DNA from: a virus
Taxonomy: Duplodnaviria; Caudoviricetes
DNA: 36,769 bases
Virus record (IMG/VR): IMGVR_UViG_3300037851_001075
Coordinates: 1-36,769 of that record
Direction: 5' to 3' (one strand)
Positions 16,970 through 27,515 of the stretch are shown here, piece after piece (the stretch's first letter is position 1; each line of letters begins with the position of its first letter). The notes below the pieces were generated by a model. It made no database searches and was not told where the DNA came from. It worked only from the letters and a program-made list of their open reading frames with translations. Made by a program: the position numbers and the translations under genes.

Positions 16970-17547
16970 AATGCGCCTACATCTACGCCCTTTTCAGCGA
17001 AGAACTTTTCAAGCACGCTCATCTTATCGAGCAGTTTCTTCGCTATCTCGTTGTCGGCGCTTTCCGTTTTTATTAAACCCGCTACCCCTATGTTCTGTGT
17101 GCTTTGTCCTGTTTCAAGGCGGTAAATATCGTAGTTTACTTTTACGATTTTTGACAGATCGCCGATCGAAGCGTCAGCCAATTTCTGCGGCGTGATCGCG
17201 GCAAGGGCGTATGCAAGGCGATCCTTCGCGGCAAGTTGAAGGTTATCCCTTACCTTCTCGATCGCAACGCTGCTTGCGCTTTCATTGAACGCTTTTTCAA
17301 TGAAAGTTTTCAGCGGGGACACCATAATCTTATCGAGTATTCGGACAACGTATCGTTTATCGCGCCCTACGATCGCAGCGATTTCGCGTTCGGACTTTGC
17401 CTGCTTGCGCAGGACGTAAACCGCCTTGACTTCATCAAGCGACATTTTCTTTGCCGCCATAGGGTTAAGAATAGACAGTTCGTCTTCCGACAGATTACCG
17501 TCATTGATTATTTTCGGAAGAGCAGACGGGTTGCCTATATTCGCCAT
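16966..17547 (-). CDS. terS: Probable terminase small subunit (HTH), 193 aa
   Basis: HTH SEREIAAIVGRDKRYVVRIL and C-terminal RLETGQSTQNI. Overlaps the terL start. Confidence 0.7.
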   Translation of the reverse strand: MANIGNPSALPKIINDGNLSEDELSILNPMAAKKMSLDEVKAVYVLRKQAKSEREIAAIVGRDKRYVVRILDKIMVSPLKTFIEKAFNESASSVAIEKVRDNLQLAAKDRLAYALAAITPQKLADASIGDLSKIVKVNYDIYRLETGQSTQNIGVAGLIKTESADNEIAKKLLDKMSVLEKFFAEKGVDVGAL

Positions 17548-17551
17548 AGGA

Positions 17552-17989
17552 TCACCCGTTGCCCGTGATTATGAAAAAGTCCCGCGCGGAATAAACCACC
17601 CTGCCCGTAGAACTTTTATTTGCAAGGCGTTTCCCGACAAGGATCTTTTCCGTTCGGAACGCCTTTGCCGTGATCGCAGACGCAAACAGAAAGATGTCCT
17701 TCGGTATTCGTTCGAGTATGGACTTTGCTTCGATGTCCTTGATCGGATAGACGCGGTTATGAAGGATATTGATCCCTTCAATTTTTTTCATAATTGGGTT
17801 TTTGACTTTGACCTTAAAGAGTTCAGCGATCGTTTCATCGGCAGGGGGAAGTTCTGTGCCGTCATCGAAGAAAACAGGATAGGGCGCGGAATTGACTATC
17901 AACGCGCCGTTGATCAGGAACGCTTGAAGACGCAGCGTATCGCCGAGCGCCGTCTTGACCTTAACTTCCTTGCAAATTGCCGTTGTCAT
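17552..17989 (-). CDS. Hypothetical protein, first gene of the late operon (~145 aa)
   Basis: ATG 17989 preceded by AAAAAACGAAAGGCGGAG and a sigma70 promoter. Confidence 0.7.
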   Translation of the reverse strand: MTTAICKEVKVKTALGDTLRLQAFLINGALIVNSAPYPVFFDDGTELPPADETIAELFKVKVKNPIMKKIEGINILHNRVYPIKDIEAKSILERIPKDIFLFASAITAKAFRTEKILVGKRLANKSSTGRVVYSARDFFIITGNG

Positions 17990-18015
17990 CGTGTCTCCGC
18001 CTTTCGTTTTTTGCA

Positions 18016-18044
18016 AGCATATCAGACGGGCAGGAACTTGTCAA
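18016..18044 (-). promoter_or_regulatory. sigma70-type promoter of the leftward (late) operon
   Basis: TTGACA (18044-18039), 17-bp spacer, TATGCT (18021-18016). Confidence 0.8.
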
Positions 18045-18297
18045 CAATTATTTCACAGTTCGTCAACATTTTATCCACAGGGCAAATTACAGAAAACGCC
18101 GCGCCGAAAAGGATCTTCTGGGTTATCCACTTATCCACCGCTACAACAACATCTACAAGGTTTTAAGTATTTCTTAAATACAAAGAACTTGTAGTAGTTG
18201 TATAGCGCGCCCAAAAATGTGGATAACCACCTAAAACGCATACAGGACAAGGAAAAGATATCCACAAAGTTATACACATCTATCCACAAAACCCACA
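18038..18297. other. oriC-like replication origin: DnaA-box clusters with an AT-rich core
   Basis: Consensus boxes TTATCCACA 18071-18079, TGTGGATAA 18218-18226 and TTATACACA 18270-18278. One-mismatch boxes at 18049, 18123, 18131, 18258 and 18280; more degenerate ones at 18038, 18060 and 18289. AT-rich 18161-18190. Confidence 0.8.
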
Positions 18298-19460
18298 GCG
18301 GCGCGGGGAAAGCGCAGGAAACGCCCGTAATTACAGGCATACGGCGCGAAGCGCCCCGCCGCAAAACGGCAGGAAGACGCAGAAAACGCCGCCGCCGCCG
18401 CACAAAAAGACAGAACAACAGCCCCACGAACGAACGCGGCGCGCCCCCCGCGCGGAAAGATCCGTCTTGTTGTTTCAGGGCGCGAAGCGCCCGCGCGATT
18501 TTTTTCCCCCACGCCCCCTGAACAACAGCCCACAGACACCCACGCAGGACGCAGCAGAAGCCCTTTACAGCCACGATCTCGCCACGCCCCACACCTGACT
18601 ACCCCTGCCCCAATAAAACGCAAGGACAGCCCCTTGCCGCCTGCGGCAGCCATACGCCTGACGCGGCTCTCAACACCGTTTCCCACAATTACAGATACAC
18701 GCAAACCCGAAGGGACGGTCTTTATCAAAAAAAATGAGCGCCTTCCCACTGCTCTTTTTTTTTATGCGCGCCTAAAAACGATATCCGTTTGATCACGAAG
18801 GCATTTTATTGGCAACCGTGATCTTGAAGCCCCGCCGCCCCCCTTATTTCAGCGCGTATGTGCGTGTTCAAGCGTCTGCGACAAGACCGCCGCGAAACTT
18901 GCCGCGCGTGTCCGTGTATGCGATCGGCTTGTTATCCTTTGCTTGCCTTGTGCTTCATCGCTTCGCTTGCTTCCCTGCGGCGCGGCGCGTGCGGCGGGCG
19001 GGCGCGCTGCGGGCGGCAGAAGACGGGCGGCGCGTGTCCGTGTCCGTGTCCGTGAAGGCGGCAGCAGATAAGGGATAAATACAAAGGCGAAAGCAAAAAC
19101 ACGGAAGGAAGGCGGCGCGGGCGCGTAAAGCCGCCCGCTTGCCTTCCCCTTATAACACATAAGGGCTTTTCATACTGTCTTTATGGATCGGCGGGCTTTT
19201 ACTGCGCGGGCGGGCGGCGATCTTTTCGGCGGGCTTCCCTGCTTTCATACGGCGCGGCGCTTCCGCGCCCGCGATCACGGGCGGCGCGGCTTTCAGCGCG
19301 GCGGCTTCCCTTCCCTGATACTTTCACAGCGGGCGGGCGCGGCAGGATCACGGCGCGCGCGATCATACCCGCGCGGGCGCGCGTTTACCTTTTCGGCGGC
19401 GGCGGGCGCTTGCTTTTTTTTTTACTGTCATTATGGCGCGCGCTGCCCTTCCTTTCCGCA

Positions 19461-19478
19461 TGTTAGTTTATACTAACA
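19461..19478. promoter_or_regulatory. Operator-like palindrome TGTTAGT-TTAT-ACTAACA
   Basis: Perfect 7-4-7 inverted repeat, an AT-rich island ~60 bp upstream of the early promoter -35. Confidence 0.5.
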
Positions 19479-19518
19479 AGCAGCGCCGCGCGCGGCTTCC
19501 TTTTCGCGGGCAAGTGTG

Positions 19519-19569
19519 AAAAGATTTTTAAAAATAATACTTGACAAAACAGGCGCGCGCTAGTATAAT
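19519..19569 (+). promoter_or_regulatory. Consensus sigma70 early promoter with AT-rich UP region
   Basis: TTGACA 19541-19546, 17 bp, TATAAT 19564-19569. A/T tract upstream. Confidence 0.9.
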
Positions 19570-19676
19570 TTAAGTAAAGGAAAGGAAAGTAAAGCGGCAG
19601 CAATGAGGCGCGGAAAGGAAGGGCAGGCAGCAGCGCAGCAAGCCGCAAAAAAAAAACGGAAAGGAAGGCGGGCGCG

Positions 19677-19874
19677 ATGACACAACAGCAGCGGGAAGCG
19701 ATCGCGGAAGTTAGGGCGATCAAGCAGGCGATCAGGGAAGCGCAGATTAGGGCAGCAGCAAGGCAGGAAAGCGGCGCGGAACTGCGCGAAACTGAAAGGC
19801 GCTTTATGCGGTTTTACAGGCAGCAGCAGCAGGCAATAAAAGCCGCGTATGATGTTTATTTTGCGGCAGTGTAA
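19677..19874 (+). CDS. Small helical early protein, 65 aa
   Basis: SD GAAAGGAAGG. First sizeable ORF after the early promoter. Confidence 0.65.
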   Translation: MTQQQREAIAEVRAIKQAIREAQIRAAARQESGAELRETERRFMRFYRQQQQAIKAAYDVYFAAV

Positions 19875-19942
19875 ACGGGCGGAAGGCAAAGCAACATATA
19901 GCGGCAAGCAAGCGCCGCAAAAAAACGGAAGGGGTAAAAAAA

Positions 19943-22408
19943 ATGATCAACGAACTTTTCACAGAAAAGGAAGTAAAAGGCAAGGGCGGAAAGGTTTTTA
20001 CTGTAAAGGAAGTTGACAAGGGAAAACAAAAAGAACTTTTCAAAAATTATCTGCTTGAATTACAAGCAGATCCCGCAAAGGCGCGCCGCTTCTTTGAAAA
20101 CATAGCAGCGCAGGGTTTGGCTTTCCATAATTACAGTTTCGGAAACTTGCTTATGGCGCTATTTCAGCGACCTGATTTTGAACTTTTGGCAGGGTTCAAC
20201 CGTTGGAAGGAATTAAACCGCAAGGTTAAGAAGAGCGAAAAGGGCATTGTCATACTTGCGCCCGTGTTTTTTAGCGGCGATATGTTAGAAAAGCGCGCCG
20301 CTGCTATTAAAGCGCAAAAACCCGCCCTTTCATTGGATCAGATCCGCGACAGGTTAAAACATGCGATCGCATATTTTAAAAACGTTTATGTTTTTGACGT
20401 AAAGCAAACAGACGGCGCGCCGCTTGACTATGACACGTTGACAGGACATAACCTTGTTAAAGCAAAGGATCAGGAAAGCGCGCAGGCGCTTTATTCCTTT
20501 CTGCTTGATTTCACACGGGCGGCGGGGTTTGAAGTAAACGACACGGCAACACACGGGAAAACAGGCGGCTATATAACACATGGTAAAAAATATATAGCGA
20601 TTAGCGGCGGGCTTTCCGTAGTGGGTAAAATATCGGTATTACTTCACGAAATAGGACACTACAAGGCAGGACATACGCAGGAAGGCGGCTTGTCTATTAT
20701 TCAGGCGGCAAACCAACAGATCAGGGAAGCGGAAGCGCAGTTAATCAGTTTTATAACTTGCCGCTATTTCAACATAGATAATAAAGACTTTACAGACGTT
20801 TATTTGTCATCTTATCTTGGCGCGATGAACTCGGAAAAAATCTACAATTATTTTAAGTATATTGTAGATCTTGCCATAGAATTGATTAAGGAAGCCGCCG
20901 CGTATAAAAATACAGGCAAGGCTGAAATTAAGGCAGCGGATATATCTAAAATCAGGAAGGCGCGCGGCGATAAAGAAGACGGCGGCGGCGATGATGACGG
21001 CGGCGGGAATGGCGGCAAGCAGCAAGCGCCCGCGCAGGATCAGACAGCGCCCGCAGTGGATCAGGCAGGCAGCGAAGTTAAACAGGAAAAACCCGCCGCG
21101 CCCGTGAAGGCAGGCAGGAAAGGCGGCAGAAAAAAAGCCGCAGATGATCCGCGCGCGGCGATCATTGAAGCCGCAGCAAAGGCGGGCGCGCCGCTGCTTT
21201 TAGGGCGCGGGCTTGAATTGATCCCTCTTGAAGATATTGCCAAAACATACGGGATAGAAAGCCCGCAGTATAAGGCAACGGCGGCAGCCCTTGCCGCGAT
21301 CGAAAAGTTAAACAGGCAGGAAGCGGGCGCGGAAGCGCCCGCCCTTCCCGCCGTTGATCCTGATGAAGTTTCATTTAAAAACTTCATACAGGCAGCGAAG
21401 GCGGGCGGCTGCATAGGCGCGGGATCGCTTGACTATTTGAAAAATATACACATACAAAACAAGCGCGCTTTCTTCATAACGGCAAGCGAAAAGGGCGCGG
21501 CGGTTTTTCCGCAGGAAGTAAACGCAGAAGACGGGATTTATGATATGGGTTTTTATAAACTTGATTACAATGATAACATAGTTGAATTAAAGAATTTTGT
21601 TTTTGATGAAAAACCGCTTGTTAAAGGGGTGATCCCCGCCGCAGAACTTGCGGAAACCCTGCCTTATGCGCTTAAAGACGACAGCAAGCACAATTTAAAC
21701 GGGATATGTATTGACACGGGCAAAGGCGGGTTATATGCAACAGACGGGCATAGGGCGCGCGCTGCTTATGTATCAACGGGAGAAGTTATCAGTGGAAAAA
21801 ACTTCCCGCGCTTTATTATTCCGCTTGATCTGATCACAGCGGCGGCGGCTTGCGGCGCGGGCGATCTTAAATACACCTATACAGACAAGGGCGGGATCAT
21901 AATCAGCGCGCCGCTTGCCACGATATACGGGCGCGCGATAGATGAAACCTTTCCCGAAATTGAAAAGGTAGAATTACAGCCCGCGCCCGCGATCCACGAA
22001 GTAAATTTTAACAAGGCGGCAGCCCTTGCGCAGATTAAGGCAGCGATCAAACAGGCGCGCCCGCTTGCTAACAGGTTTAAAAAGACGGCGCGCCTTGTAG
22101 GCGGCGCGCTTGTCTATGAAAGCAAAGCAGATTTTACAGCCCGCGCGATCCTGATCCCAGCCCTTGAAGGCGTAGACTTAATGCCCTTTAATGCTTTTTA
22201 CTTTCATGAATTCCTTTCCGATCCGATAACGCAGGGCGGGCAAATCGCGGCGGCTTCCTGTATAATCAGATCCTTTAAAGCAGACTATGGGACAGCAGGA
22301 AAGCGCGGCGGGCTTGCCTTCTTAATGTCATTAAGGGACAGGGCGGAAGAAGAAAGGACAGCAGCGCCCGCGATCGAAAAGGCGCGGAAGGCGGCGGCGC
22401 GTGAATAA
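19943..22408 (+). CDS. Polyvalent early protein: ArdC-like N-domain + zincin metallopeptidase (HExxH) + beta-clamp-like domain, 821 aa
   Basis: ArdC-N: YSFGNLL..FQRP..LAGFNRWKELNRKVKKSEKGIVILAP..YVFDVKQTDG. Zincin: LLHEIGH..REAEAQ. DnaN-like: LNGICID..YATDGHR..RAIDETFPEIEKV..FNAFYF..LMSLR. Confidence 0.8.
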   Translation: MINELFTEKEVKGKGGKVFTVKEVDKGKQKELFKNYLLELQADPAKARRFFENIAAQGLAFHNYSFGNLLMALFQRPDFELLAGFNRWKELNRKVKKSEKGIVILAPVFFSGDMLEKRAAAIKAQKPALSLDQIRDRLKHAIAYFKNVYVFDVKQTDGAPLDYDTLTGHNLVKAKDQESAQALYSFLLDFTRAAGFEVNDTATHGKTGGYITHGKKYIAISGGLSVVGKISVLLHEIGHYKAGHTQEGGLSIIQAANQQIREAEAQLISFITCRYFNIDNKDFTDVYLSSYLGAMNSEKIYNYFKYIVDLAIELIKEAAAYKNTGKAEIKAADISKIRKARGDKEDGGGDDDGGGNGGKQQAPAQDQTAPAVDQAGSEVKQEKPAAPVKAGRKGGRKKAADDPRAAIIEAAAKAGAPLLLGRGLELIPLEDIAKTYGIESPQYKATAAALAAIEKLNRQEAGAEAPALPAVDPDEVSFKNFIQAAKAGGCIGAGSLDYLKNIHIQNKRAFFITASEKGAAVFPQEVNAEDGIYDMGFYKLDYNDNIVELKNFVFDEKPLVKGVIPAAELAETLPYALKDDSKHNLNGICIDTGKGGLYATDGHRARAAYVSTGEVISGKNFPRFIIPLDLITAAAACGAGDLKYTYTDKGGIIISAPLATIYGRAIDETFPEIEKVELQPAPAIHEVNFNKAAALAQIKAAIKQARPLANRFKKTARLVGGALVYESKADFTARAILIPALEGVDLMPFNAFYFHEFLSDPITQGGQIAAASCIIRSFKADYGTAGKRGGLAFLMSLRDRAEEERTAAPAIEKARKAAARE

Positions 22409-25994: not shown

Positions 25995-27515
25995 ATGGAA
26001 GAAAACAAGCAAGCCGCCGAAACCACAACGGCGCTGATCCACGCAGAACTTGAAAAGGAAGAAGGCGTTCTTAACCGCGAACAGATCTACGAAATTATGG
26101 ACAGGATCGATGACCTTGCCGTAATGAATAAAGTAGGGCAGGAAGTTCTCGCCGATATGGTATATCGCTTTTCAGATGAAAGCGGCAAGACGGTTCTCGG
26201 CTTGTCAAAGATCGGTGTTGACAGCGCAGCCGCGCAGTTGGCAGGGCAAGGGATCATCATCAGGGAAGTTTCGGTTGACTTTAAAGAAACCCCTGACGTT
26301 TATTATTTCACGGCAAAGGCGGCGCGCTTTGCCCGTGATAACTACGGCAACGAAACAGAACTTGAAAGCGCCTTCGGTTTCAAGCGGCAGCAGAAGCGGC
26401 AGTTTCAGAACGTCCCTGTCCGTGATGAACACGGCAAGAAGATCTATAACACAGACGGCAACGTCAAGCGGGAATATAAGGAAGTTGAAAACAAGTTCGC
26501 CTTTGAGCAGGGCGGGATCAAGGCGGTAAGGAACGCGAAGCGCCGCTTGATCGGCGAAAGTTTAATCAAGCGCCTGATCGAAGCGAAGTTAAATCAGGGC
26601 AAAGTGCAGGACATAAAGGTAAAACAGATCGCAGATGAAGCGGACTACTACAATAAAGACGGAAAGAAGATCGATCCCGCAGAAGCGAAGAAGGCGGCGG
26701 ACGCAAAGGCGGCAGCAGATCTTAAAGAGTATGAAGAGATATATAAAAAGTTCTCTTCCGATTTTGTTGCGTCCGTGATAAACGTCAAGTATAATGTGAA
26801 AAGGTTGCGGGATATTCCGCTTGACAAACTGAAAGCGGATCTTCCCGCCCTTCTCAAAGCATACGAAGATCACAAAACAGGAACAGGCGCGGCGGTAAAA
26901 AAAGGCATTACCCCTTCCAATGATCCCCAAACCCCCGCCGCCGCGCCTGCTTCCGCCCAAATCCCGCCGCCTGCGCCTGCTGTTTCGGCTACGGCTACGG
27001 ACGGGAAGGCGGAATATAAATATACTCCAAACAAGGACAGCGCCGAAGGGCTTCCCTTACTTGTTGAAAAGATACAAGGCGGGCGGATCGCGTCAAGGTA
27101 TGAGATCGCCCGCAGTGCAGACGGAAAACTTATGTGTTCCTGCCCTGCCCGCAAAGAGTGCAAGCACATCAAGGAAGCGGGCAACGTGCTTGAACTTTAC
27201 AGGGAGTTTAAGAAGGCGGAAGGAACGCCGCCGCCCGTAGCGAAGCCGTCAGCCGCGCCCGCGAAAACCTTCCCTTCCTTTGATCGTAAGAAGTATGAAG
27301 CGATCAAAGACGCGGAAGGAATACCCGCAGCCCTGTGCAAGTATTTGCAGGAAGTTCACGCGTTTCGTGGGGCAGCCCTGTTTAATCTGATCACAAAACT
27401 TGCAGGCAAGAAGAGTTTCAACGACATAACAGAAAAGGACTACAAGCAAGTATGGGAATATCAGATCTTCGGGAAGTCAACAGAAGAACTTACGGCGGTT
27501 TTAAATGCAAAATAA
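25995..27515 (+). CDS. Probable single-strand annealing protein (Rad52/RecT-like fold) with SWIM Zn finger, 506 aa
   Basis: GLSKIGV...FTAKA...FAFEQGGIKAVRNAKRRLI SSAP-like helix and SWIM motif CSCP..ECKHI. Lies next to an exonuclease. Confidence 0.55.
   Translation: MEENKQAAETTTALIHAELEKEEGVLNREQIYEIMDRIDDLAVMNKVGQEVLADMVYRFSDESGKTVLGLSKIGVDSAAAQLAGQGIIIREVSVDFKETPDVYYFTAKAARFARDNYGNETELESAFGFKRQQKRQFQNVPVRDEHGKKIYNTDGNVKREYKEVENKFAFEQGGIKAVRNAKRRLIGESLIKRLIEAKLNQGKVQDIKVKQIADEADYYNKDGKKIDPAEAKKAADAKAAADLKEYEEIYKKFSSDFVASVINVKYNVKRLRDIPLDKLKADLPALLKAYEDHKTGTGAAVKKGITPSNDPQTPAAAPASAQIPPPAPAVSATATDGKAEYKYTPNKDSAEGLPLLVEKIQGGRIASRYEIARSADGKLMCSCPARKECKHIKEAGNVLELYREFKKAEGTPPPVAKPSAAPAKTFPSFDRKKYEAIKDAEGIPAALCKYLQEVHAFRGAALFNLITKLAGKKSFNDITEKDYKQVWEYQIFGKSTEELTAVLNAK

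Follow-up and report, generated by a model that had tools for sequence, protein, structure and literature searches.

A candidate host-DnaA origin with two facing box-and-triplet arms in a tailed phage

How might a tailed phage with no recognisable replication initiator open its own DNA? The question is raised by a short site in the viral record IMGVR_UViG_3300037851_001075, where two arms, each combining DnaA-box sequence with a tract of three-base repeats, face one another across an AT-rich core. An earlier note on this DNA had read the arms as a pair of modules resembling the bacterial basal unwinding system (BUS), and every element that it listed (boxes, tracts, heptamers and palindrome) is where it had been placed. 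We asked whether the arms follow the published rules for such modules, how far they are kept in relatives, and which explanation of the site fits best. The window that we analysed is the entire record, 36,769 bases long.

The record and the layout of the site

We compared 46 of the 152 listed ORFs, those judged to be likely genes, with Pfam and PHROGs, and 30 ORFs with NCBIfam. The Pfam and PHROGs matches include tailed-phage families (a P22-like portal, a major head protein, a large terminase and a GH108 endolysin) together with an ArdC-type polyvalent protein, a Dam methylase, a PD-(D/E)XK exonuclease and an HNH family. Structural genes run leftward from 18016 and early genes rightward from 19943, and the twin-module site lies at the left edge of the 1.9-kb intergenic region, between two predicted divergent promoters (Table 1). 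Against a CheckV completeness estimate of 43%, we infer from sequence comparison that the record is a near-whole 36.8-kb tailed phage, because related contigs measure 36.8 and 38.3 kb, the gene order parallels that of contig L016, and both window ends map inside a single 1,355-aa gene of L016 (C-terminal match, E 1e-53; N-terminal match weak, E 5e-4). An in-frame joining of the two window ends was not found.

The GC-skew minimum lies at 18975, and the switch follows gene direction: at four-fold sites the sense strand has a positive skew in each of the three gene blocks (0.23, 0.14 and 0.19). We rejected GC skew as proof of bidirectional replication, because it follows the genes and the arcs between its extremes are unequal (13 versus 24 kb). 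Elsewhere in the intergenic region, the predicted early promoter lies between long inverted repeats at 19439-19506 and 19610-19676, which include a perfect 17-mer pair. To the right of the candidate origin stand two copies of the GC-rich motif GGCGCGAAGCGCCC (18384-18410 and 18478-18500), which is also kept in the distant relative L014 (580-606); it is possibly a protein site or a hairpin.

Table 1. Coordinates of the site, of the predicted promoters and of selected ORFs (window positions unless another contig is named).
Feature	Position	Strand	Remarks
145-aa ORF between candidate origin and terS	17552-17989	-	conserved in L014 (49%)
Predicted sigma70-type promoter of the packaging/structural (late) operon	18016-18044	-	consensus 10/12; points away from core
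Left flanking boxes	18038-18079	+	2 mismatches at 18038, perfect at 18071
Left arm, overlapping tandem DnaA boxes TTATCCAC at 18123 and 18131	18123-18139	+	8-bp period, 1 mismatch each
Left triplet tract CTA CAA CAA CAT CTA CAA	18141-18158	+	predicted bound strand is -
AT-rich core, candidate unwinding element	18159-18188		inner palindrome GTATTT-CTT-AAATAC at 18167-18181
Right triplet tract, in phase ATA CAA CTA CTA CAA	18189-18205	-	faces left tract
Right spacer, GC block GGGCGCG plus A run (T5 on - strand)	18206-18217	-	12 bp
Right arm, perfect DnaA box TTATCCACA	18218-18226	-	directed at core
Three right flanking boxes	18258-18288	+	1 mismatch each, 10-12 bp apart
Predicted early promoter, divergent from the late one	19541-19569	+	consensus 12/12
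821-aa polyvalent protein	19943-22408	+	ArdC-N, M78 metallopeptidase, C-terminal sliding-clamp-like region
506-aa ORF	25995-27515	+	no family match; ESM Atlas neighbours SWIM and Rad52/Rad22, scores 0.80-0.87
Bac_DnaA_C-like ORF	L358 2194-2571 (G306 C1 about 19900-20270)		beside near-perfect mirrored BUS

The 'GC linker' described for the left module amounts to 1-2 bases, with a G at 18140 standing between boxes and tract, and the right arm carries a single box, not a tandem pair. The leftmost flanking box, at 18038, overlaps the -35 element of the predicted late promoter. An inverted heptamer pair (CTACAAG at 18153-18159 and CTTGTAG at 18188-18194) brackets the core, and the symmetry centres, 18174.5 for the boxes, 18173.5 for the heptamers and 18174.0 for the inner palindrome, all lie within half a base of 18174. 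Seven of the 15 boxes with at most one mismatch in the window fall in 18071-18288; 400 dinucleotide shuffles gave at most three boxes in any 220 bp. The facing pair of box-plus-CWA modules appeared in none of the 400 shuffles, the CWA pattern having been chosen post hoc, once the sequence had been seen. By computed duplex stability, no 40-bp or 60-bp window of the intergenic region is less stable than the core, which falls in the top 0.1-0.2% of the genome for instability; other spots in the genome are more AT-rich. A repeat search around the core found no iteron-like direct repeats apart from the boxes. Both arms are present in JGI contigs L012 and L013 and in a run X3 contig from Logan, while a Logan contig of run X2, which starts at 18147, has the right arm; because these separate assemblies carry the arms, an assembly artefact is excluded.

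Triplet phase and the published trio rule

The published BUS search (PMC8287927; definition of Pelliciari 2021) asks for a box, a spacer of at most 16 bp and at least three consecutive 3'-NAN-5' trios. Boxes with at most two mismatches, single or tandem, are found in both arms (one plus one mismatch in tandem on the left, none on the right), and the spacing is 9 bp from the outer left box and 11-14 bp, depending on register, on the right. Easily melted AT-rich DNA adjoins the tracts in the form of the core, and the 3'-G of the trio is in phase in 6/6 left triplets and in four consecutive right triplets. The trios themselves fall short in both arms: the best NAN runs are 1 (left) and 2 (right) in the window, 1 and 2 in L012, and 1 in L014, and on the predicted bound strand of the left tract a central A occurs in only two of the six triplets. 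TTGT occurs three times on the predicted bound strand of the left arm and twice on that of the right. A bacterial oriC lies on a chromosome, usually beside dnaA/dnaN; here the terminase and early genes flank the site and the record holds no dnaA. Because both arms fail to reach three NAN trios, the published rule does not count the site as a BUS; it may still work like one. The earlier reading is partly supported: the box cluster, the conserved tandem box with its triplet tract, the unstable core and the lack of a recognisable phage initiator speak for a BUS-like origin probably driven by host DnaA, and the short NAN runs of both tracts weaken it.

The caveat attached to the CAA trios from the outset proved a serious one. 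In PMC10721633 and bioRxiv 2022.03.18.484894, flipping the central A:T of trios 1-3 slows strand separation by Bacillus subtilis DnaA, and thymine at the centre of trios 1-3 lowers both strand separation and initiation. According to PMC10721633, the G and the A of each trio are both captured by DnaA, and the contacting residues are not universally conserved. In the mechanism of Pelliciari 2023, a 3'-G is preferred as the first base of the captured dinucleotide. TTGT is given as a single-stranded DNA motif of Escherichia coli DnaA in PMC10325909, PMC12342881 and PMC10797057.

Relatives, twins elsewhere and the search for an initiator

A metagenome scan found three relatives (L012, L013 and L014). 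L012 and L013, at 95% terminase identity, are identical to each other over the site, and run X3 carries the same substitutions, so the three are counted as one lineage. The longest run unchanged from L012 is 18143-18211 (69 bp; rough p 0.013), on a background of 87.6% intergenic identity and 48 changes at 204 four-fold sites of terL. In L012 and L013 the left tract opens with CCA in place of CTA, the right triplet tract is invariant in L012, L013 and X3, and two of the three right flanking boxes retain at most one mismatch in L012 and L013; conservation is higher in the tracts and core than in several of the flanking boxes.

In the distant L014 (52% terminase identity) the tandem boxes are still there, followed by a CAA/CTA tract and by an AT stretch that ends at a GC block; this left module is its only blastn match to a 17401-20100 query, and the first 16 bases of the left tandem boxes are invariant in L012, L013 and L014. 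A reverse DnaA box is absent from L014 (the best candidate has four mismatches), as is an inverted triplet tract at the matching place, and a GC block with an A run, placed similarly to the right spacer, has no box behind it. The inner palindrome is not kept either. One outcome that the earlier note had named as refuting its reading, a right-hand module that is not conserved and is dispensable, is thus borne out by half: the module is missing from L014, although it is invariant in the close clade. Because L014 keeps the left module only, we regard the left arm as the conserved core and the right arm as a clade add-on; the relatives seen represent two independent lineages only, and gain and loss of the right arm fit equally. 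The window's right tract shares 14 of 15 bases with the L014 left tract, more than the window's own left tract does (11 of 15). This fits a possible origin of the right tract through inverted duplication of a left one.

No similar DNA was found in GenBank phages, and viral-contig relatives recovered by terminase or capsid were 22-32% identical, without the box cluster in the DNA examined. The relatives are binned in MAGs under four different labels, which suggests mis-binning. A host search with early-region DNA against 99 genomes of the phylum of MAG G002 gave four short matches, with none in a CRISPR array as judged by eye. The dnaA locus of G002 itself (L071) is 26% GC, and its record label names Methylomirabilis, which we take to be doubtful given that GC content. 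A distant phage in the same MAG (L111 9560-9690, on contig C25 of G002) has a long CAA/TAA tract about 500 bp upstream of a probable terS, a position similar to that of the candidate origin in the window, but without recognisable DnaA boxes.

Facing arms recur in other phages. A scan for a tandem box followed by CWACWA gave 41 viral loci. Almost all of them consist of one module whose trios are CTA; 1/41 passed the twin rule and 3/41 a relaxed version. Ten loci came from a twin-directed scan, with a trio tract on an inward-facing arm in L062, L064 and L068, and a third scan gave the near-perfect mirror L251. That scan shows no enrichment of twins by count, because its one twin among 97 distinct matches was equalled by one in a wrong-orientation control. 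The strict trio rule is passed on both arms in L062 (7/5), L068 (3/9) and L251 (7/5), which belong to unrelated phages (G263, G264 and G306, respectively) with records rated complete, and in which the twins sit among early genes, away from the terminase. With Pfam, no AAA+ initiator, helicase, primase or polymerase was found in 132 of the 134 ORFs of G263, G264 and G265 or in 39 of the 40 ORFs of G306. In G306, a complete 35.9-kb phage, a small DnaA-domain-IV-like ORF (Bac_DnaA_C match) lies directly upstream of the box cluster and twin. Helical phasing of the facing boxes across seven twins was not significant (p about 0.33). About half of L019-L059, GC-rich viral contigs of 33-36 kb, form a recurring family in which one canonical BUS accompanies a box cluster; in L019 it adjoins a DnaB-like helicase gene.

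Bacterial dnaA loci gave no facing twins (0/32) and a module in 26/32, in a narrow sample comprising the two MAGs that hold relatives and 30 genomes from one of their phyla. An apparent second arm in the oriC of G002 failed the twin rule. The statement that origins have one module each is partly built into the published survey, which keeps one candidate per genome (PMC8287927); passages of a review (PMC13220808) describe one trio tract per origin. A tandem box with CAA-rich trios occurred at no bacterial origin in 201 genomes of the phylum of MAG G001, and a looser CAA pattern matched in 25/151 genomes, no more than a reversed control, with two boxes nearby in 0/27 places. No CAA-rich chromosomal origin that would explain the CAA variant was found in the genomes searched. 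In viral DNA, a box-plus-CAA scan gave about 380 matches, and only one of the 120 examined, a 39-bp tandem repeat, had at least three boxes; such loose patterns match mostly by chance.

Initiator, helicase, primase and polymerase families were absent from the 46 ORFs compared with Pfam and PHROGs and from the 30 compared with NCBIfam, and a six-frame search of the record for Bac_DnaA, DnaB_C and Bac_DnaA_C was empty, with positive controls detected. Between about half and most of the early-region ORFs have no family, and a novel phage initiator could be among them. The 145-aa ORF adjoining the site has a predicted model of moderate quality (pLDDT 67), whose best fold match, a weak one, is the CRISPR ring nuclease Crn4 (Foldseek E 0.07; VIA Z 5.6, rmsd 3.3, 83 aligned); a sequence search against PDB gave no match. 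The catalytic residue of Crn4 is H15 (PMC12830947), and the ORF has no histidine near the start of the Crn4-matched region. Going by this model, the protein may be an inactive or nucleotide-binding Crn4 relative and does not look like an initiator. The 821-aa protein, product of the first large early gene, may touch host replication, and the 506-aa ORF is, as a lead only, a Rad52/SWIM-like annealing protein.

Readings of the site and known systems

We lean towards the view that the cluster at 18038-18288 is an origin opened by host DnaA, in which the core is non-canonical and the mirror arm an accessory, because it combines a box cluster, a conserved tandem box with triplets and low duplex stability in a phage with no recognisable initiator. 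Host DnaA would bind the boxes of the cluster, and an ATP-DnaA filament would extend from the left tandem boxes onto the - strand, one triplet per protomer. With G in phase and a central A or T, specificity could come from G capture or from TTGT-type contacts. The AT core would then open, perhaps aided by negative supercoiling behind the two divergent promoters; the right box could seed a second filament on the + strand and so widen the bubble, and host helicase, primase and polymerase would finish the forks. The conserved left arm would nucleate melting, while the right arm, which is confined to this clade, would keep hold of the other strand. We call the right arm accessory because the left arm must suffice in L014, if the L014 site is an origin. 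If the site is an origin, we give the right arm a little less than an even chance of actively melting or holding a strand. In the fuller proposal the origin would be symmetric and free of a phage initiator: a pair of host-DnaA filaments would converge on opposite strands and set up both forks through T-centred triplets read mainly by guanine capture. We consider this doubtful; were it true, a trio code forbidden by the B. subtilis rules would be in use. The suggestion that such a site out-competes the host origin found no support in our analysis.

The departure of the tracts from the DnaA-trio rule would also suit a plasmid-like origin, in which an unrecognised phage initiator acts on the CAA/CTA tracts or on the melted strand and host DnaA assists through the boxes. 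In plasmids DnaA boxes assist a Rep protein, and TTGT motifs are found there too (PMC10797057); about half of the early ORFs have no family, and a DnaA-domain-IV-like protein stands next to the G306 twin. We nevertheless think this origin unlikely: iteron-like repeats were not found around the core, a tract following a tandem box of 8-bp period is a layout also seen at bacterial dnaA loci, and nothing resembled an initiator, the adjoining ORF being weakly Crn4-like and the 506-aa ORF a Rad52/SWIM-like lead only. The boxes might instead form a DnaA sink or a late-promoter switch, with no unwinding at the site and replication by another route such as recombination. The overlap with the predicted late -35, the poor performance of this trio type with B. 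subtilis DnaA, and the presence of a PD-(D/E)XK exonuclease and a probable Rad52/SWIM-like annealing ORF all fit, but a sink would need neither a phased tract nor an unstable core, yet both are kept at depth, and tracts and core outlast several flanking boxes in conservation, which makes a sink or switch quite improbable to us.

A role in packaging, as a pac signal or as some other terminase site ahead of the terS-terL operon, would account for the position about 1.2 kb upstream of terL, for a probable TerS with an HTH domain and for the palindrome in the core. It leaves the perfect DnaA boxes unexplained, however, the inner palindrome is not kept in L014, and the twins of L062, L068 and L251 lie among early genes rather than beside the terminase, so we give it very little weight. 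Chance or faulty assembly is barely credible: the CWA pattern was defined after the fact and loose box-plus-CAA patterns are mostly random in viral DNA, but the facing pair is missing from all shuffles, recurs in independent assemblies and is kept, in its left arm, at the terminase divergence of L014, a degree of conservation that in itself refutes this reading.

We return to a host-DnaA origin and compare it with what has been described. The literature search found no phage-borne or twin BUS and no phage that starts replication with host DnaA alone, in a coverage that mostly excludes subscription journals; the word 'phage' is absent from the texts of PMC8287927 and PMC10721633. The latter names the loading of two helicases at one origin as an open question, for which a mirrored origin, single-arm relatives and canonical twins in other phages would be ready substrates. 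If CAA tracts work, the trio rule used for origin prediction is too narrow.

Like the B. subtilis BUS (PMC8287927, PMC10721633), the site has tandem boxes, a short spacer and period-3 triplets with G first, followed by AT-rich DNA; unlike it, the site is phage-borne, has two facing arms and a mostly T-centred left arm, and its left spacer, counted from the outer box, is 9 bp, where published distances peak at 10-13. The TTGT motifs on the T-rich strand next to a box recall the DUE of E. coli oriC, with its TT[A/G]T(T) motifs beside box R1 (PMC10325909 and PMC10797057), from which the site differs in its mirrored layout and in having no 13-mers that we could see. With the iteron origins of plasmids and phage-plasmids (RK2, F, R6K and P1; PMC10797057) it shares an extrachromosomal setting, DnaA boxes and an AT-rich region, but no Rep gene or iterons were recognised (many ORFs being family-less) and its boxes abut trio-like tracts. 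The twins L062 of G263, L068 of G264 and L251 of G306 also have inward-facing box-plus-triplet arms around an AT core, and their phages, 36-44 kb long, likewise have no AAA+ initiator or helicase that we could recognise; these twins have canonical CTA trios on both arms, whereas the window has CAA-rich tracts and a single-arm relative. The twin layout itself therefore occurs in other phages, and what is new at this locus is the non-canonical, G-phased CAA code together with the single-arm relative.
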